From the NCBI GenBank assembly GCA_964597355.1, contig CAZQWS010000002.1, positions 34,262-98,261 on the forward strand: a stretch of DNA of 64,000 nt, given 5' to 3'. Source of the stretch: an uncultured Bdellovibrionales bacterium (GTDB taxonomy: Bacteria; Patescibacteriota; Minisyncoccia; Moranbacterales; UBA1568). Each line of letters opens with the position of its first letter. The stretch's first letter is position 1. Shown piece after piece: positions 6,371 to 40,152 of the stretch. A program made the translations under genes and the position numbers. Below the pieces are notes generated by a model, which saw only the letters and a list, made by a program, of their open reading frames with translations, did not search any database and was not told where the DNA came from.

Positions 6371-6585
6371 ACCTTTTTAGAATAATGGCTTGAATAAAGG
6401 AATAACTTAGAAAATAGTGGATAAATCACAGTATATCATGGTGAGGGGAAACAATCACCTCTGAAAAGTTAATAATTTGTGGAGAAACTGTTCATAATGT
6501 GCGCAAAAATCAATAAGAGAAAAAGTACATTGACTTTTCTTGAGAGGTAAAATATACTGCTCTTGTTATTCGGTATCCATTCGTT
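6371..6585. promoter_or_regulatory. dnaA-rpmH divergent intergenic region: candidate oriC segment and divergent promoters
   Basis: DnaA-box-like 9-mers GTGGATAAA (6417-6425) and TGTGGAGAA (6478-6486); dnaA | rpmH-rnpA-yidC-jag synteny. Confidence 0.5.
6530..6558 (+). promoter_or_regulatory. Sigma-70-type promoter for the rpmH-rnpA-yidC-jag operon
   Basis: TTGACT (6530-6535), 17-nt spacer, TATACT (6553-6558), about 28 nt before the rpmH ATG. Confidence 0.5.
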
Positions 6586-6723
6586 ATGCCTAAAAGAACC
6601 TACCAACCAAAAACGCGCCGTCGAGCTCGCCGCCACGGTTTTTTGAAGCGCATGAGCACAAAAACCGGTCAGGTGGTTATCCAAAAACGTCGCCGCCAGG
6701 GCCGGAAGAAGCTTTCGGTCTAA
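6586..6723 (+). CDS. rpmH: 50S ribosomal protein L34
   Basis: 45 aa, absent from the ORF track because it is under 60 aa; translation [45 protein letters not shown] is canonical L34. Confidence 0.85.
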
Positions 6724-6739
6724 ATTCTTCATTCAACCT

Positions 6740-7072
6740 ATGCTTGGAAAGCCCAATCGATTACGAGGGAAAAGGCTTTTTCAAGAAGTTTTTGCTCGTG
6801 GGAAACGGGTTTTTGTTGATGGAGTGGGTTGTTTTTCACTCCCCCTGAAAGATGGTACTCTAGTAGTAGGAGTGACATTCACTCAAAAAACTTTCCCTCA
6901 CGCAGTCACCCGCCATCAATACAAACGGCGGTTACTCCACTTGGTACGAGAAGAAATCCCCTCAATACCGCAAGGGAGGGCCATAGTTTTCCATTTCCAG
7001 CGGCCACTCCCGAGACTTTCTCCCCTAGTATTACGGAGCATTGTCCAAAAACTTTTGTATCGTTCACTCTAA
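6740..7072 (+). CDS. rnpA: Ribonuclease P protein component
   Basis: 110 aa basic protein following rpmH; NRLRGKRLFQEVFARGKR motif. Confidence 0.85.
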   Translation: MLGKPNRLRGKRLFQEVFARGKRVFVDGVGCFSLPLKDGTLVVGVTFTQKTFPHAVTRHQYKRRLLHLVREEIPSIPQGRAIVFHFQRPLPRLSPLVLRSIVQKLLYRSL

Positions 7073-7086
7073 ACAGCATCTTTTCT

Positions 7087-7836
7087 ATGAGCACTTTGTA
7101 CCACGCTTTTATCTACGATCCTCTCTATAATGCTCTTGTTTTTTTCTATGATGTTTTCCCGTTTCAGGATTTCGGGGTCGCTATCATTCTTACGACCGTT
7201 TTAATCAAGGGAGTCTTCTACGGGCTTTCTCGAAAGCAGATAGAATCCCAGAAAAAGATGCAAGAGGTTCAGCCGAAGATCAAGGCACTTCAGGAACGAT
7301 ATAAAGATGACAAGGAAAAACAAACTCGGGCGATTATGGAGTGCTATAAAGAAAACAAAGTTAACCCTTTTGCTGGCTGTTTCCCGCTCATTGTTCAACT
7401 GGTGTTTTTCATTGCTTTTTATCAAGTGATTATTAGCTTCACAGGGAATGATTTCAAAATAGACGCGGCAAATCTCTATTCTTTTCTGCCCAATCCCGAA
7501 ACAGTGCATACGGAAGCCTTTGGATTCCTTGACCTTGTCAAAGCAGCTCCCTGGCTCGGGGCACTTGCGGCTTTGGCCCAGTATTTTCAGACCAAGATGC
7601 TGCTTCCCCACACTATGCCAGCTAAGAAAGAGGGGGGAAAGTCTGATATGGCTCAAGATATGGCTCAGATGATGGGGAAACAGATGCTCTATATTGGTCC
7701 AGCACTTATTTTCTTCTTTAGCTTCCAATTTCCGGCAGCTCTTTCGCTCTACTGGCTAGTCTCAACGCTCCTTTCATGGGGGCAGCAGAAGCTTATTTTT
7801 GATCGGCACCAACAAACTTCTTCTCATAGCGTATAA
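7087..7836 (+). CDS. yidC: Membrane protein insertase YidC (short form)
   Basis: The ORF-track frame 6829-7836 carries an unsupported 5' extension; the ATG at 7087 (MSTLYHAF...) gives about 249 aa with the conserved KALQERYKDDKEKQTRAIMECYKENKVNPFAGCFPLIVQ core; no yidD present. Confidence 0.85.
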   Translation: MSTLYHAFIYDPLYNALVFFYDVFPFQDFGVAIILTTVLIKGVFYGLSRKQIESQKKMQEVQPKIKALQERYKDDKEKQTRAIMECYKENKVNPFAGCFPLIVQLVFFIAFYQVIISFTGNDFKIDAANLYSFLPNPETVHTEAFGFLDLVKAAPWLGALAALAQYFQTKMLLPHTMPAKKEGGKSDMAQDMAQMMGKQMLYIGPALIFFFSFQFPAALSLYWLVSTLLSWGQQKLIFDRHQQTSSHSV

Positions 7837-24178: not shown

Positions 24179-24215
24179 GCGTGCTTAGCTCAGTTGGTTA
24201 GAACATCTCGTTTAC
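24179..24215 (+). pseudogene. tRNA-Val-like 5'-half fragment, partial tandem duplicate of the downstream tRNA-Val
   Basis: TAGCTCAGTTGGTTAGAACATCTCGTTTAC is near-identical to the D-arm and anticodon stem of the tRNA-Val at 24264, but no T-arm or acceptor 3' strand follows; the 10-mer CACCGAGAGG is also duplicated. Confidence 0.4.
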
Positions 24216-24263
24216 CCACCAGAAACGCTCTGCGTATGCGGTGCGGGCGGGCACCGAGAGGTT

Positions 24264-24337
24264 GGGCAGTTAGCTCAGTTGGTTAGAGCATCTCGTTTAC
24301 ACCGAGAGGGTCAGAGGTTCGAGTCCTCTACTGCCCA
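24264..24337 (+). tRNA. tRNA-Val (anticodon TAC)
   Basis: Acceptor GGGCAGT/ACTGCCC, D-arm TAGCTCAGTTGGTTAGAGC, anticodon loop TTTACAC, T-loop GGTTCGAGTCC. Confidence 0.75.
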
Positions 24338-24386
24338 CACAGGACAAGTATTGATTTTTTTTCTCGTTCAGGGATAATGGGAAATG

Positions 24387-24797: not shown

Positions 24798-24951
24798 TTG
24801 GGTTGATAGGGAGTCGAACGGGTGGGAGCGAGACGAGTTTCCTTTCAACAGGAAGGAAGCGATGACGAGTGTCGACGGATGCGAATGAATGAGCATTCGG
24901 CGCCACCCAGGACAAGGAATGAGTGAGCGACGGCGAACGAGTGACGCGAAA

Positions 24952-24967
24952 CTCCCCTTACCCGCTC
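24952..24967 (+). repeat. 16-nt direct repeat of the tRNA-Gly 3' end (CTCCCCTTACCCGCTC; first copy 24741-24756)
   Basis: Exact 16-mer shared between the tRNA-Gly T-arm/acceptor and a site about 200 bp downstream; att-like scar; intervening DNA carries T-loop-like GGAGTCGAAC fragments. Confidence 0.5.
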
Positions 24968-33313: not shown

Positions 33314-34687
33314 GTGATTGCTCGGCGAATGATGGTATACTGTGAAACTATGTATACGCTGTTAAGAGAATTATTATGGGGAGAGAGAGCTTACCTTACT
33401 TATTGGTATGCTTTCTTGCTATCTTTCCCCTTCTCTTGGCGTAAAGTTATCTCCCCATCGGTTACAGGAGGGTCTTTTAACGAATACTTGGATCTTTCTC
33501 TTTATGTAGGAGACAGTCTCATTCTAGTAGCATTTATACTAATACTAAAACACGAAAATAGTAGAAAGTCAATATTAAGTAGTACTAAAATGTTCCACGT
33601 GGAACATTGGTTAGGAGTTATATTTGTTCTATACATCCTATGTTCATTTTTTTGGTCGGAAAATAAATGGCTCTGGATAGACGGAATTGTAAGCCTTATT
33701 CGTATTATTGCAATTCTCTCAATCTTTATTTTTACTTTTAAACTGGATAAAGAACAAGATGATTGTTCCACGTGGAACAATTTAAAGTATTTTACTTTTA
33801 TTATCGCACTCTCTCTTTTACTGCAGTCATTTGTAGGTATTTCACAATTTATACATAATCGATCGATTGGTCTTGGCGTCATTGGAGAGAGTAGTTTAAA
33901 TCAGTATACAGATGGGGTGGCAAAAATTGATTTTGATACATTTAAACAGATACGTGCTTACGGTACATTTCTGCATCCCAATGTGTTTTCTGGATATTTA
34001 GTTGTGAGTATACTGTTTGTTTTGACCTATTTACGTTTAAAAAGTGGAAAAATGTTCCACGTGGAACAATTTCTTCTCTACTTCAGTGTTTTATTGGCTA
34101 CATTAGGCCTAATTTTTACTTTTTCAAAGATTGCAATAGTTTCATTTTGTATAATGATAGGATGGTATTTGTTCCACGTGGAACAAATACATTTGAAAAA
34201 AATGTTCCACGTGGAACATTTATTTTTTTTAATGGCTTTAGTAGGGTTTTTGTTGGTCATGTTTATTTTAGGAAGAGATCAGATATTAAAGTCAATATAT
34301 GAAAGGCTTTTTATTTTTCATATACAACCAATACAGGGGGAAGAATTGCTTTTTGGTAAAGGAATGGGGCAGTCTGTCTATGCCTTGAGTGAAAATCACC
34401 CGAATTTAGAAAATTGGCAGTTGCAGCCAATCCATAATGTTTACCTTCTTATTATTTATGAAATTGGTTTATTCGGTTTTAGTATACTGTCTTATTTGAT
34501 ATTTGTGTATATACAAAATGTTCCACGTGGAACAAGTAGTCTTTTTTATGTTCCGATACTCATAATAGGAACTATCGCAATTTTTGATCACTACCTATGG
34601 GATATCTATGTTGGTCAGGTGTTGCTTGCTTTGGGATTTGGGTGGACTGTAGTAGGAGCATATATAGATATTGACAAAAATCAATAA
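33314..34687 (+). CDS. O-antigen ligase-like (Wzy_C family) membrane protein carrying six in-frame parS palindromes
   Basis: 457 aa, AT-rich, multi-TM; Wzy_C-like IRAYGTFLHPNVFSGYL and IHNVYLLIIYEIGLFGF; interrupted by short peptide insertions KMFHVEHW, DCSTWNN, KMFHVEQF, LFHVEQI, KMFHVEHL, NVPRGTS encoded by the repeated palindrome. Confidence 0.6.
   Translation: MIARRMMVYCETMYTLLRELLWGERAYLTYWYAFLLSFPFSWRKVISPSVTGGSFNEYLDLSLYVGDSLILVAFILILKHENSRKSILSSTKMFHVEHWLGVIFVLYILCSFFWSENKWLWIDGIVSLIRIIAILSIFIFTFKLDKEQDDCSTWNNLKYFTFIIALSLLLQSFVGISQFIHNRSIGLGVIGESSLNQYTDGVAKIDFDTFKQIRAYGTFLHPNVFSGYLVVSILFVLTYLRLKSGKMFHVEQFLLYFSVLLATLGLIFTFSKIAIVSFCIMIGWYLFHVEQIHLKKMFHVEHLFFLMALVGFLLVMFILGRDQILKSIYERLFIFHIQPIQGEELLFGKGMGQSVYALSENHPNLENWQLQPIHNVYLLIIYEIGLFGFSILSYLIFVYIQNVPRGTSSLFYVPILIIGTIAIFDHYLWDIYVGQVLLALGFGWTVVGAYIDIDKNQ
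33591..33606. repeat. parS-like 16-bp perfect palindrome TGTTCCACGTGGAACA, copy 1
   Basis: Exact palindrome; extended form AATGTTCCACGTGGAACATT; starts at codon position 2, giving MFHVEH. Confidence 0.7.
33764..33779. repeat. parS-like palindrome TGTTCCACGTGGAACA, copy 2
   Basis: Extended ATTGTTCCACGTGGAACAAT; codon position 1, giving CSTWN. Confidence 0.7.
34053..34068. repeat. parS-like palindrome TGTTCCACGTGGAACA, copy 3
   Basis: AAATGTTCCACGTGGAACAATTT; codon position 2, giving MFHVEQ. Confidence 0.7.
34170..34185. repeat. parS-like palindrome TGTTCCACGTGGAACA, copy 4
   Basis: 22-bp perfect palindrome ATTTGTTCCACGTGGAACAAAT; codon position 2, giving LFHVEQ. Confidence 0.7.
34203..34218. 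repeat. parS-like palindrome TGTTCCACGTGGAACA, copy 5
   Basis: 22-bp perfect palindrome AAATGTTCCACGTGGAACATTT, only 17 bp after copy 4; codon position 2, giving MFHVEH. Confidence 0.7.
34519..34534. repeat. parS-like palindrome TGTTCCACGTGGAACA, copy 6
   Basis: AAATGTTCCACGTGGAACAAGT; codon position 3, giving VPRGT. Confidence 0.7.
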
Positions 34688-37050: not shown

Positions 37051-37114
37051 GTTTGAGGAGACTATTTTAAAATAATATAAAAATACCTCACAAGAGCGAG
37101 GTATTTTTATATAG

Positions 37115-37150
37115 TGGACAATACTGGATTTGAACCAGCGACCTTCATTC
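37115..37150 (-). pseudogene. tRNA-like 3' half (T-arm + acceptor 3' strand) of an outer split tRNA-like gene
   Basis: Reverse complement GGTCGCTGGTTCAAATCCAGTATTGTCCA: T-arm CTGG-TTCAAAT-CCAG, acceptor ATTGTCC complementary to GGACAAT at 37307-37313. Confidence 0.45.
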
Positions 37151-37166
37151 AGCACCAAATGCCTTA
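37151..37166. repeat. Left arm of the perfect 16-bp inverted repeat (AGCACCAAATGCCTTA) flanking tRNA-Val(GAC); partner at 37259-37274
   Basis: Exact reverse-complement pair 108 bp apart. Confidence 0.7.
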
Positions 37167-37178
37167 ATTTCTTGAGTG

Positions 37179-37252
37179 TGGGTCTGTCCAGATTCGAACT
37201 GGAGACCTCTACAATGTCAATGTAGCGCTCTAACCAACTGAGCTACAGACCC
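37179..37252 (-). tRNA. tRNA-Val (anticodon GAC)
   Basis: Reverse complement: acceptor GGGTCTG/CAGACCC, D-arm TAGCTCAGTTGGTTAGAGC, anticodon stem CTACA/TGTAG with loop TTGACAT, T-loop AGTTCGAATCT. Confidence 0.75.
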
Positions 37253-37258
37253 AAGTTG

Positions 37259-37274
37259 TAAGGCATTTGGTGCT
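37259..37274. repeat. Right arm of the 16-bp inverted repeat (TAAGGCATTTGGTGCT)
   Basis: Exact reverse complement of 37151-37166. Confidence 0.7.
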
Positions 37275-37313
37275 GGATCAATGTGACGCTCTAACCAACT
37301 GAGCTAATTGTCC
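37275..37313 (-). pseudogene. tRNA-like 5' half (acceptor 5' strand, D-arm, anticodon-stem start) of the outer split tRNA-like gene
   Basis: Reverse complement GGACAATTAGCTCAGTTGGTTAGAGCGTCACATTGATCC, near-identical to the tRNA-Val 5' half up to the anticodon loop (TTGATCC vs TTGACAT). Confidence 0.45.
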
Positions 37314-37389
37314 TTTATGGGTGTAAGTGATAGGGCAAACTACCAGCCTTGGGCTGATCCGTTTTTGGCAAAAGCTACAAGCCCTATAT

Positions 37390-38301
37390 TTATACTGATG
37401 GTGCCCCACTAGTGTTTTTCTCTCCCTCAATGATTTTCTTGGTAGTCTCGACTATTTTGATATGAGGAGTTGCAGCGAGAGCATGGAAGAAAAGGAGACG
37501 AAGTGTTTCTGTAATGAGAGTGGCCAATCCAAAAACAATAATACCTCCCAGTGCATTGGCAGTCACTTCTAGCCAGAAGAATGGGATGAGGACACTGGTG
37601 ATAATAGCGAGGTTTAAGAAAAAAGTAAAGAGTAAGGAAAGGGCAATAAGAAAAAGTCCAAATAGTAGAGAGAAAAGGAGGTGTTTTTGAAAGAGTTTTA
37701 ACCCGAGTTCGAGAGCGAGTCGGGGTTTGATCCCTGTGAGGAGGGAATAGAGGAGGCCAAATTCTTTCATATAGAAAAAGGTGAGAGCAATCACGAGAAG
37801 AAAAATGGTTCCCATCTGAAACAAGGAAGGAATAACCATCGGATTTACTTTTGAAGCGATGAGGATGGGTGAAAAAATAATGAGCCCCAATAGGGTGAGA
37901 GCGGCCCAGTATAGTGTTTCAAAGAGAAAAGAAAGACCAGCGGCGCGGAGAAGATGTTTTTGATGCGGATGGATTTCTTTTGGTGAATCAGGGAGTGTAT
38001 TGAGGATGGTCCTTTCAATGAAAAGAAAGAGTGGGCCACGTAGAAGAACTCGGAGAATGCCGATACAAAGAAGAGCTAGTATAAGAACCATGAAAGTAGT
38101 TTGGTGTTCCAAAAAAAACGCGAAGAAGTTTTCTGGAGAGGAGAAATTGTCTTGGGGAAGGGGGGTGAGATGTTTGCTTAGCTGGAGAGAAAGGAAGCCG
38201 AGTACCCCAAAGGGAAGACCTAACCAGAGAAGCAGTTTTGACCGAAAGATAAGCCAAACTGCTTCTTCGAGGAGATTGAAGAAGGAGACGGTGGTCCGCA
38301 T
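37390..38301 (-). CDS. Hypothetical polytopic membrane protein
   Basis: 303 aa with about 7-8 hydrophobic helices; no family recognised. Confidence 0.45.
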   Translation of the reverse strand: MRTTVSFFNLLEEAVWLIFRSKLLLWLGLPFGVLGFLSLQLSKHLTPLPQDNFSSPENFFAFFLEHQTTFMVLILALLCIGILRVLLRGPLFLFIERTILNTLPDSPKEIHPHQKHLLRAAGLSFLFETLYWAALTLLGLIIFSPILIASKVNPMVIPSLFQMGTIFLLVIALTFFYMKEFGLLYSLLTGIKPRLALELGLKLFQKHLLFSLLFGLFLIALSLLFTFFLNLAIITSVLIPFFWLEVTANALGGIIVFGLATLITETLRLLFFHALAATPHIKIVETTKKIIEGEKNTSGAPSV

Positions 38302-38310
38302 AGGAGTGGA

Positions 38311-40152
38311 TTATACAGTTGTAGGAGCCGTAGGAGGTGTACCAGCCACTAGAGCGTCAAACTCTTCTTTTTCGAGTGTTTCTTTCGTAAGCAGAGTGTT
38401 GGCAATAGCGTCAAGGATTACTCGTTTTTCAGTCAAGATTTTGGTAGCTCGTTCGAAAGCCTCGCTGATAAGTTTCGAAACTTCGCTATCGATAGCTCGA
38501 GCGGTTTCTTCAGAGTAGTCGCGGTTTTCGTGCATTTCTCGACCGAGGAATACGAGCTCTTCTTTCTTCCCAAAGGTACGGGCACCAAGATTACTCATAC
38601 CATAACGAGTGACCATGCTTCTGGCCATTTGTGTGGCACGTTCTAGGTCACTTGAGGGGCCAGTGGTGAGGTCGCCAAAGACGAGTTTCTCACTGGCATA
38701 CCCGCCAAGAAATACCGCGAGTTCATCAAGGAAATAGTTCTTGGTGTGGAGAGTCTTGTCTTCGCTGGGAACGGCCAAGGTATAGCCACCGGCGTGACCA
38801 CGAGAGATGATCGAGACTTTTTGTACCGGATCAGCGTTCTCAAGACTGGCTCCGACCAAGGCATGGCCACCTTCGTGATAGGCCACCACTTTCTTCTCCT
38901 TTTCGCTAATGGCTCGGCTGCGCCGTTCTGGTCCGAGGATCACTTTTTCTATCGATTCAGCCAGTTCTTGCTGGCCAATCTTTTGTTTGTTACGGCGAGT
39001 GGCAAGAATAGCGCCTTCATTGACGAGATTGGCGAGGTCAGCTCCGGAAAAACCAGGGGTGCGTTCGGCCAAACGGCGGAGATTGACATCAGTGTCCAAG
39101 GGTTTCCCTTTGGTATGGATCTTGAGGATAGCTTCGCGTTCGTTGATATCAGGGAGGTCCATGGTAACGCGACGATCGAAGCGTCCTGGGCGAAGAAGAG
39201 CTGGATCAAGCACATCGGGCCGGTTGGTCGAAGCAATGACAATCACGCTTTGGTCGGTTTCGAAGCCGTCCATCTCGACGAGGATTTGGTTGAGTGTTTG
39301 TTCGCGCTCATCGTGTCCACCACCAAGGCCAGCACCACGATGTCGTCCGACAGCGTCGATTTCATCGATAAAGACAATTGCAGGGGCGTTTTTCTTGGCC
39401 TGTTTGAAGAGGTCGCGTACCCGACTAGCTCCGACACCAACAAACATCTCAACAAACTCTGAGCCGCTAATATTGAAAAAAGGCACGCCAGCTTCGCCAG
39501 CTACGGCCTTAGCCATAAGAGTCTTGCCGGTTCCGGGAGGTCCGAGGAGGAGTACTCCTTTGGGAATTTTGGCGCCCATAGCCAAGAACTTCTTCGGTTG
39601 ACGAAGGAACTCTACTACTTCCATGAGTTCTTGTTTGGTTTCGGCTGCTCCAGCCACATCTTTGAACGTAATACGTTTTTTCTTATCCTTGGGATCAAGC
39701 ATGCGAGCCCGACTTGAACCAAATGAAAGGGCTTGAGCATTACCACGCTGAGCCTGGCGCATCATAAACCAGATAAAAGCCGAGATGAGAATGAAGGGGA
39801 GAAGAAAAGGGAGAATAGCGGCCATCCAGAAACCAAAGCCAGATTCTTTTTTGACAGTTACTGCTACGCTACCGAGTTTGTCTTTCTCAACGCCGTAATT
39901 GGTGAGGGTTTCGGTTAGTGAACTCTCGGATTCTTTACTTGCTTTAGCCTTGCTCCCATCAGTCTTTTCGATATTGAGAGCGTTGCCTTCGACGGTAATG
40001 GTTTTAATTTTACCGGCGTGAATCTCACTGACGAGCTCAGAAAGAGAGATATCAGCTGGCTTTTTCTCAGGTGAAGAGTACAAGATCATGATGCCAGAGA
40101 GCATGAGGAACAAGAACACCACGAGCCCGATATTTTTCATGAATTTGTCCAT
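38311..40152 (-). CDS. ftsH: ATP-dependent zinc metalloprotease FtsH
   Basis: 613 aa; N-terminal TMs, AAA+ Walker [18 protein letters not shown] zinc motif. Confidence 0.95.

Follow-up and report, generated by a model that had tools for sequence, protein, structure and literature searches.

Transfer RNA genes are among the most stable genes of bacteria, and they also serve as landing sites: Williams is reported to have described, in 2002, how tyrosine-integrase elements target them at sublocations in the anticodon loop, the T-loop and the 3′ end. Elements of this kind measure kilobases, encode their integrase, restore only the 3′ part of the gene they enter, and leave direct repeats and a 3′ fragment behind. 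Archaea carry mobile tRNA introns, with transposition in Thermoproteales, and tri-split tRNAs (PMC10714607, PMC3218864, PMC4090602); such inserts have bulge–helix–bulge junctions, are removed by the splicing endonuclease and leave a complete tRNA. In Patescibacteria, group I introns interrupt tRNA-Asn and tRNA-Asp at 35/36 (PMC13011429); these are ribozymes of a few hundred nt which start after U, end in G and splice themselves out precisely. Phage T4 offers a further case, in which the free-standing endonuclease SegB drives intronless homing in the tRNA region (PMC2330249), and miniature inverted-repeat transposable elements (MITEs) are marked by target-site duplications and many dispersed copies. 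Here we describe, in a 64-kb stretch of contig CAZQWS010000002.1 (“the window,” meaning the whole of the DNA analysed), a tRNA-Val(GAC) locus in which a resident gene is interrupted by a small cassette carrying a complete gene for the same tRNA. With a probability of roughly 0.6, we believe that the resident gene has repeatedly been replaced by a non-autonomous, inverted-repeat-bounded cassette with its own rescue tRNA. Full-text searches, which did not reach every journal, brought up no account of one tRNA gene lying within another in bacteria.

On the minus strand, the locus consists of an intact tRNA-Val(GAC), a perfect 16-bp inverted repeat around it, and the halves of a second tRNA gene outside. 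Below, L-numbers denote related loci compared with the window, the synteny group is the set of 58 loci with an intact tRNA-Val(GAC), FtsH percentages give identity to the FtsH encoded in the window, and levels are counted from outside to inside. In the order of the minus strand, the features are:

37278 to 37313, minus strand: 5′ part of the level-2 outer tRNA-Val(GAC), positions 1–35 (acceptor GGACAAT, D-arm, 5′ anticodon-stem strand, loop to A35)

37259 to 37277, minus strand: left arm of the cassette, TCCAGCACCAAATGCCTTA, with homologous arms and the same TCC start in L010, L014, L017, L024, L031, L041, L124 and L205

37253 to 37258, minus strand: 5′ spacer (leader) CAACTT, from the arm to G1 of the inner tRNA, with similar spacers in L010, L014 and L024

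37179 to 37252, minus strand: level-3 intact tRNA-Val(GAC), GGGTCTG allele (Rfam RF00005, 73 bits; ARAGORN Val(GAC))

37167 to 37178, minus strand: 3′ spacer (trailer) CACTCAAGAAAT, conserved in L010 and L024

37148 to 37166, minus strand: right arm of the cassette, TAAGGCATTTGGTGCTGAA, from repeat searches

37115 to 37147, minus strand: 3′ part of the level-2 outer tRNA-Val(GAC), positions 41–73, in which 3 nt that close the anticodon stem are followed by the variable loop, the T-arm, acceptor ATTGTCC and discriminator A

All the elements that an earlier note had read from the letters of the window are present, at its coordinates and on the minus strand; its two outer halves stand, while the TCC that it had placed in the 5′ half and the GAA that it had placed in the 3′ half are arm bases. 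The insert measures 130 nt: a 19-nt arm, a 6-nt leader, a full GGGTCTG-type tRNA-Val(GAC), a 12-nt trailer and the complementary arm. By the bacterial tRNA criterion the inner gene scores 73 bits against a gathering score of 29 for RF00005, its ends being given as 37179–37252 by Rfam and 37178–37252 by ARAGORN, and it is 100% identical (blastn-short) to the single tRNA-Val of L004 (FtsH 94%) and to those of L014 and L024. As no other intact tRNA-Val(GAC) gene exists in the window, it is presumably the functional one.

The arm 16-mer AGCACCAAATGCCTTA has exactly two copies in the window, at 37259–37274 (minus) and 37151–37166 (plus), and no further match with fewer than three mismatches; by arithmetic estimate, about 3e-5 perfect partners of a 16-mer are expected by chance in 64 kb. 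Pairing can be extended to 19 positions with one C·A mismatch (TCCAGCACC.../...GGTGCTGAA), and an inverted-repeat search of the window returns 26-nt arms with 88% complementarity. The 221-nt transcript is predicted to fold at −76.8 kcal/mol, compared with −51.8 ± 4.4 for shuffles (z = −5.7), with the long stem and the outer acceptor stem in the predicted structure. Leader–trailer pairing of the inner tRNA reaches −37.9 kcal/mol, the median over 113 tRNAs in all DNA compared being −13.5.

Judged by their alignment to alleles of relatives, the outer halves are relics of a resident tRNA-Val(GAC) and not exons. The 5′ part agrees in 36/36 bases with the intact GGACAAT tRNA-Val of L011, L012, L013, L018, L033 and L045, which reads GGACAATTAGCTCAGTTGGTTAGAGCGTCACATTGACATTGTGAAGGTCACTGGTTCGAATCCAGTATTGTCCA, and the 3′ part in 31/33 (both blastn-short), the two changes being A49 to G, by which an A-U pair becomes G·U, and G57 to A in the T-loop; the outer acceptor strands GGACAAT and ATTGTCC pair in all seven positions. 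Relative to this intact allele, the window has CATTG (positions 36–40) replaced by the 130 nt, with breaks after A35 and before 41, and for this reason excision cannot restore the outer tRNA. ARAGORN finds no tRNA in the directly joined halves, calls tRNA-Val(GAC) once CATTG is restored to them, and in intron mode reports the inner gene only, with no second gene at the locus. The earlier note had not been able to fold the halves into a canonical anticodon arm after simple excision, and of the options then considered, the disruption of a tRNA gene by a small tRNA-bearing cassette is supported by the intact outer alleles in relatives, whereas an intron-like arrangement is contradicted by the missing anticodon-arm nucleotides, the lack of any Rfam intron family and the negative intron mode. 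The remaining option, an RNase III-type processing stem around tRNA-Val, may or may not apply: the arms covary, but no strand bias is seen among their G·U pairs.

A functional RNA, either a tRNA-encoding intron or a split tRNA or tRNA-like RNA made of the outer halves and the helix, is very unlikely, even though several observations would suit it. The outer acceptor, D and T stems of the window are intact, the outer gene of L041 keeps all three stems despite three insertions, and insertion sites in loops or at loop edges would fit selection for the cloverleaf; precise removal of the insert would restore a perfect anticodon arm in L078 (tRNA-Ile) and in L087, and the tRNA-Asn and tRNA-Asp group I introns (PMC13011429) provide a precedent at 35/36 within Patescibacteria. 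In the window, however, the anticodon arm cannot form without positions 36–40, the 5′ exon would end in A and not U, the 130-nt insert has no Rfam intron match, there is no bulge–helix–bulge geometry, and the outer halves are decayed or chimeric in L010, L014, L024 and L031. Moreover, an uninterrupted copy is always kept, which would be unnecessary if interrupted copies worked. The two named intron types were rejected individually. Group I does not apply because Rfam detects no catalytic core, the base ahead of the insert is A35, the last base of the insert is again an A, and 36–40 are absent; the archaeal bulge–helix–bulge type does not apply because, at the junction, 3 bp left over from a stem are followed by a one-sided bulge of 6 nt (CAUUGA) and then by the long helix. 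In Rfam, no intron family was matched by the locus or by the longer inserts in L033 and L002, either at gathering score or at E ≤ 10; credible matches were to tRNA only, the rest lying far below gathering scores.

The comparison with relatives suggested in the earlier note shows the same site holding one uninterrupted tRNA-Val(GAC) in some genomes and the same nest in others. Empty sites are seen in L006 and L009 (FtsH 91 and 89%), each with one intact tRNA-Val(GAC) of acceptor GGACGAT; at this place L011, L012, L013, L018, L033 and L045 have the GGACAAT allele without interruption, and L004 has the inner GGGTCTG allele alone. The same architecture is found in L010 and L014, with junctions …GTCACATTGA/TCC… and …GGA/TGAAGGTC (a slash marks the break), the recurrent form being …CATTGA/TCC…GGA/TGAAGG, and, with these same junctions, other arms and other inner alleles, in L017, L021 and L041. 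A different lineage of the Candidate Phyla Radiation (CPR), L124, has two successive nest levels with arms TCCCTCACC…GGTGAGGGA. For both anticodon-stem types, UCACA with UGUGA (3′ junction /TGAAGG) and CUACA with UGUAG (/TAGAGG), the 3′ junction lies at position 41, which points to a position-specific process rather than to one inherited junction. In 18 of the 58 loci of the synteny group, the single intact gene is accompanied by further pieces of tRNA-Val, 14 nt or longer and no more than 700 nt away, without exception on its own strand; shorter relics (L002, L006, L024, L031, L257) raise the true number. A metagenome scan with GAGCGYYACATTGATYC, a loose pattern, matched at least 120 loci; among the matches listed, only L124, L135, L203 and L205 are real. 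The earlier judgement that such an arrangement is unusual for a bacterial tRNA locus holds in general and fails in this lineage, where it recurs.

The outer halves decay, and the alleles turn over. The outer T-arm is deleted in L010, the outer halves of L014 are chimeric (a GGACAAT 5′ half with an ATACGCC 3′ end), and L024 and L031 have kept the arms while the outer halves are nearly gone; an uninterrupted tRNA-Val copy is present in every locus with enough sequence. Genomes with FtsH 97, 94 and 91% identical to that of the window carry GGGCTTG, GGGTCTG and GGACGAT, respectively, and two loci at FtsH 91% are reciprocal: L006 (6760–6925) has a GGGTCTG 5′ relic and an intact GGACGAT gene, L257 (5260–5410) an intact GGGTCTG gene and a GGACGAT relic riddled with hairpins.

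An assembly artefact, that is, a chimeric path through two tRNA-Val alleles co-existing in a metagenome, is hardly credible in view of this recurrence. The source is indeed a metagenome-assembled genome, both alleles share a 20-nt D-arm, and a short-read contig with the same sequence (L001) ends 65 nt past the level-1 relic described below, before the duplicated D-arm. Yet the arms and spacers are unique sequence, beyond what any allele switch could produce, and the same architecture with diverged arms appears in many independent assemblies. Nests come from independent projects, among them contigs of 652 and 826 kb.

Outside the two levels described so far lies a third, which the earlier note had missed (37384–37314):

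37373 to 37384, minus strand: level-1 (oldest) relic, GGGCTTGTAGCT, the 12 nt with which a GGGCTTG-type tRNA-Val(GAC) begins, the break lying in its D-loop (blastn-short, 12/12)

37314 to 37372, minus strand: decayed D-loop insert of 59 nt, with hairpin relics (GCC..GG, CAGCCcaaGGCTG) followed by the left arm GTTTGCCCTATCACTTACACCC of a second cassette kind

The GGGCTTG allele is intact in the closest relatives L002, L255 and L256 (FtsH 97%), at the identical distance from the stop codon of the upstream open reading frame (ORF). The 59-nt insert, within which a CAGCC..GGCTG hairpin was flagged, is homologous to tttCCGCCcgaGGCGGaCCAGCCttgGGCTGG and GCTTGCCCCGTCAC... in L014, L017, L021, L029, L033 and L045; in relatives, the D-loop insert is composed of two small hairpins followed by the arm GCTTGCCCCGTCAC…, its partner arm …GTGACGGGGTGAAGT standing ahead of the D-stem. 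In L045 this second kind of insert brackets an intact GGACAAT gene within a broken GGGTGTA gene, and by this homology the second cassette kind probably delivered the level-2 (GGACAAT) tRNA. The locus is a three-level nest of GGGCTTG, GGACAAT and GGGTCTG alleles, from outside to inside, the nesting of the layers giving the likely order of events. We also observed that the two-hairpin D-loop unit (CCGCC…GGCGG plus CCAGCC…GGCTGG) has the inverted order in L002 (6845–6885) compared with the window (37345–37370) and L017, so that cargo-less units may insert either way, unlike the tRNA cassettes.

When the arms of 11 cassettes are anchored at their junctions, 90.9% of cells pair, compared with 68.8% after shuffling (0 of 500 shuffles reach the observed value), and both sides have changed in 10 of 12 pairs. 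The outermost bases are conserved in sequence (TCC[C/A].CAC), the outermost 8–9 bp being conserved beyond what pairing demands, with family termini TCCC.CAC…GTG.GGGA and CCCCGTCAC…GTGACGGGG. Inverted-repeat pairs of the form CCC.(.)CAC…GTG.(.)GGG occur, within 938 kb of CPR DNA, at tRNA loci only. Related GC-rich hairpins without cargo, such as CCCGCCCGAACGTACCGTTCGGTACGGGCGGG and CCTGCCTGCCGGCAGGCAGG, sit in dead tRNA-Val copies, where they occupy the D-loop (GGTTA/…/GAGC), the anticodon loop at its edge, or the T-loop, which they split at C56/G57 (GGTTC/…/GAATCC). They are perfect hairpins of 15–35 nt with no duplication, whose removal would restore the loop sequence exactly (for example L041 7864–7895 and 8029–8060, L029 7957–8123, L045 7886–7950, and L027, L026, L017, L002 [T-loop]). 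Eleven of 28 GC-rich hairpins fall within the tRNA-Val zones, which make up 2.7% of bases, an approximately 14-fold enrichment. About nine distinct insertion positions are seen, all in loops or at loop edges, and cargo tRNAs are in sense orientation in at least 16 of 16 cases. Taken together, these patterns suggest that the cassette belongs to a family of small, non-autonomous elements, found only in tRNA-gene loops of CPR bacteria.

The arms could alternatively be a donor's native leader–trailer processing helix of the RNase III type, the nest having arisen by uptake of foreign DNA and illegitimate recombination, which we consider unlikely. The helix of 17–19 bp flanks the tRNA at 6 and 12 nt; arm pairing survives heavy sequence change, including matched indels in L024; L024 and L031 retain the helix despite their decayed outer halves; and strong leader–trailer helices are seen on other tRNAs of the CPR loci, such as tRNA-Ile in L083 and L087. 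All of this is as a processing helix would have it, but single-copy GGGTCTG-type genes such as that of L004 do without one, the conservation of the outermost 8–9 bp goes beyond pairing, and G·U pairs show no excess on the sense strand. Nor would random illegitimate recombination be expected to produce the same A35/…/41 junction across alleles and lineages, and twice in L124.

If the resident gene has indeed been replaced by cassettes, the history of the locus would run as follows. A GGGCTTG-type gene would have been broken in the D-loop by a cassette bringing a GGACAAT-type gene, the GGACAAT gene would then have been broken in the anticodon loop, after A35 and before 41, with loss of CATTG, and the 130-nt insert would have supplied the complete GGGTCTG-type tRNA-Val(GAC); only the innermost gene would still work, and the outer pieces would be relics. 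With neither a promoter nor a terminator recognisable within it, the cassette is presumably read from the resident promoter to the resident terminator (37112–37075), the relevant features being:

37389 to 37394, minus strand: possible −10 box TATAAA, which shares bases with the stop codon that ends the 303-aa ORF upstream and lies 4 nt ahead of the first tRNA relic

37075 to 37112, minus strand: intrinsic terminator belonging to the resident tRNA gene, in which a hairpin of 17 pairs is joined to a T-run, 2 nt past the outer 3′ end

The motif (A/G)GTATAA(A/T)T directly precedes the first tRNA or relic in L002, L006, L255 and L257 as well, and the terminator hairpin was also recovered by the inverted-repeat search. 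The transcript would be a precursor of about 270 nt, from which the usual enzymes of tRNA end processing would free the inner tRNA. The arms would form a helix of 17–19 bp in the transcript; this would isolate the inner cloverleaf from the outer 5′ half, which is almost identical in sequence and could otherwise mispair with it, and the helix may guide processing. Insertion would kill its target, so that the only insertions to survive would be those that bring a functional gene for this tRNA, placed in the direction of transcription. The requirement that the insert supply the tRNA that it destroys would explain why nests are of a single isotype, why cargo is sense-only, and why cargo-less hairpins occur in dead copies only. 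An insertion enzyme and a route of transfer, like the co-transcription and the role of the helix, are parts of this scheme that we infer.

A number of results weigh against this reading. Neither within the cassette nor beside it was any protein gene found that could mobilise it, and no donor form, plasmid or phage, was found; scans of a viral collection gave 47 chance matches to the 5′ junction pattern, none in a tRNA context, and no match to the D-loop junction pattern. Filled and empty sites reveal no target-site duplication, 5 bp of the target having been lost instead, and to our knowledge such a loss fits no transposase family. A scan for sigma-70 consensus promoters upstream on the minus strand returned no promoter, and as TATAAA was not flagged by it, its promoter role is one that we only infer. 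The covariation of the arms would also be expected from exact inverted duplicates at birth or from homogenisation by gene conversion, and the G·U pairs, 14 in the sense and 11 in the antisense reading, show no strand bias that would speak for an RNA role of the helix, so that an RNA helix and a DNA-level inverted repeat are not told apart. Finally, part of the recurrence could reflect one old nest spread by homologous recombination, although the double nest of L124 and the two anticodon-stem contexts lead us to favour repeated insertion events.

A broader and more tentative idea, which we consider less likely than not, is that the cassettes belong to an undescribed class of selfish CPR elements recognising structure and not sequence and inserting into tRNA-gene loops, in two forms: the cargo-less GC-rich hairpin and the replacement-tRNA cassette. 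The strict preference for loops, together with the recursion by which tRNAs enter hairpin loops and hairpins enter tRNA loops, would suggest that the elements insert into single-stranded DNA or RNA in its folded state; we know of no bacterial precedent for such insertion with a tRNA as cargo. If true, a cargo-less hairpin would survive only in dead copies, and tRNA cargo would let a cassette destroy a live gene; the continual turnover of tRNA alleles that follows could be an addiction or drive system at the level of tRNA, or equally an arms race with nucleases that attack the anticodon stem-loop.

Allele replacement driven by homing is conceivable too. In such a scenario, a site-specific DNA endonuclease cuts the resident tRNA-Val, the break is repaired from a donor in which the nuclease gene is linked to a resistant allele, and the nuclease is later lost, with the arms as by-products. 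One locus, L057, invites this comparison: a 5′ relic of tRNA-Val, in which the break follows the D-stem, is separated from an intact tRNA-Val by an ORF of 232 aa (6561–7259), whose stop codon is the intact tRNA's own U8-A9-G10. Homologues of this protein, ORF232, number at least 928 in Patescibacteria, at 58–89% identity, and in L258, L261 and L264 (1501–2199) the ORF lies directly upstream of tRNA-Val(GAC), 0–40 nt away or overlapping the 5′ end, while the surrounding genes differ; the family (227–232 aa) is linked to tRNA-Val(GAC) in all four contexts examined. The model of ORF232, with a predicted local distance difference test score (pLDDT) of 92, comprises a helix-turn-helix domain of the transposase/resolvase type at the N-terminus, a long helix and a C-terminal alpha/beta domain, for which no structural or sequence match was found; no nuclease fold is recognisable in the protein. 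What separates live from dead alleles lies chiefly in their acceptor and anticodon stems, a pattern that resistant and sensitive targets would be expected to show. For the window, homing is nevertheless a doubtful explanation: ORF232 is absent from it and from all other Moranbacteria loci compared, the break in L057 lies at 25/26 and not at 35/41, and homing accounts neither for the inverted-repeat arms nor for the cargo-less hairpins. ORF232 is a candidate protein of mobility or homing and may be the agent of a related form of tRNA-Val replacement.

The setting of the locus is conserved in the order FtsH, a membrane ORF of about 300 aa, the tRNA locus, and two convergent ORFs. The FtsH gene of the window (38311–40152, minus strand) is 1 kb upstream of the tRNA locus, and its best matches are in Candidatus Moranbacteria/Moraniibacteriota (CPR/Patescibacteria); the organism is a Moranbacterium.

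Nests of other tRNAs were also seen. Same-isotype nests of tRNA-Ile and tRNA-Thr come from other CPR lineages: a tRNA-Ile(UAU) in the T-loop of another tRNA-Ile(UAU) (L083 7000–7165, arms CCCCCACACTCAAA/TTTGAGTGTGGGGG), a tRNA-Ile(UAU) nested at 36/37 with no bases lost (L078 8040–8290), and a tRNA-Thr(UGU) within two outer tRNA-Thr relics (L261 1090–1340, arms CCCGCC…GGCGGG). The window itself holds a second nest, a tRNA-Val(UAC) (24264–24338, plus strand) with the relic of another tRNA-Val(UAC) allele directly upstream (24179–24263); the relic comprises acceptor GCGTGCT, the D-arm and an anticodon arm cut after TTTAC by 38 nt ending …GGTGCGGGCGGGCA, and it runs straight into the intact gene with no clear inverted-repeat bracket. 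Near the tRNA-Gly(GCC) gene, within 24800–24967, there are an exact 17-nt tRNA-Gly(GCC) 3′ relic, ACTCCCCTTACCCGCTC, at 24951–24967 (plus strand), 190 nt downstream of the intact gene and with its own terminator, and an inverted partial T-arm, GGAGTCGAAC, at about 24812.

Elsewhere in the window, a perfect 16-bp palindrome of different sequence, TGTTCCACGTGGAACA, occurs six times (33591, 33764, 34053, 34170, 34203 and 34519), in each case within a Wzy_C-like ORF of 457 aa (33314–34687), where its in-frame reading is FHVEQ/H; none would be expected by chance, and the orthologous region of about 38 related genomes contains 1–15 copies.

Several further readings were rejected, the first four on the junction sequences alone. 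Taking the UGA…UGA junction for a kink-turn, or for box C/D, does not work for alleles with UAG at the 3′ junction, and a target duplication of 2–3 bp (AT or TGA) is inconsistent across alleles. An ISDra2-like TTGAT target with ends of the IS200/IS605 type does not apply, as the ends here pair with one another and have no separate subterminal hairpins. Tandem duplication with reciprocal decay cannot yield the complementary break points 35/41, and integration of the integrase type is at odds with a 130-nt insert that has no ORF and is flanked by complementary halves (1–35 and 41–73), not by direct repeats.

The tRNA-Val genes considered here turn over between close relatives and leave layered relics, which record the order of allele replacement. 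Standard tRNA finders report the inner gene and overlook the relics, and short-read assemblies break at such nested loci. Should the cassettes be what we take them to be, they would represent a new use of the tRNA landing site by mobile elements, in which a whole spare tRNA makes the destruction of an essential gene safe. The precursor of about 270 nt, the conserved junction and the candidate protein family provide testable material on tRNA maturation in ultra-small bacteria with reduced RNA-processing machinery, and it can now be asked whether tRNA-allele turnover reflects conflict with tRNA-targeting nucleases.

Set beside the known systems, the locus is best classed as a variant of tRNA-targeting mobile DNA, and we assign it to no family that has a name, as the features by which the candidate families are defined were absent here or beyond test. 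With the tyrosine-integrase elements it shares the tRNA-gene target, often the anticodon loop or T-loop, the repeated use of one locus, an imported tRNA sequence that keeps the gene working, and the fragments of the old gene left behind; it differs in that the insert is of 130 nt and has no protein gene, that the tRNA it brings is complete, that inverted repeats bound it, and that both old halves stay behind. The archaeal introns are likewise short helix-forming inserts at many loop positions (D-loop, anticodon loop, 56/57 in the T-loop), related inserts are found in several tRNAs, and helices of a leader type join the halves of split tRNAs; here, however, the bulge–helix–bulge motif is absent, five nucleotides are missing, the copies that were interrupted decay, and a gene without interruption always accompanies them. 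The group I introns of Patescibacteria share the phylum and the place of the 5′ junction, after position 35, whereas the present insert has no ribozyme core in Rfam, starts after A, and yields no tRNA on removal.

Homing by T4 SegB resembles the locus as the selfish replacement of one tRNA-region allele, and a module of ORF232 and tRNA-Val could work in this way, but the window has no endonuclease gene, and homing leaves clean conversion tracts and no nested halves. The MITEs, finally, are similar in being small and non-coding, with terminal inverted repeats whose outermost bases are conserved; the repeats here (16 bp perfect, 19 with one mismatch) have termini conserved across copies, no other copy occurs in the window, copies within the 938 kb of CPR DNA lie only at tRNA loci, and no transposase was found in or beside any copy. 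Unlike MITEs, the elements described here delete target bases, have a working tRNA as their cargo, and occur nowhere but within tRNA genes.

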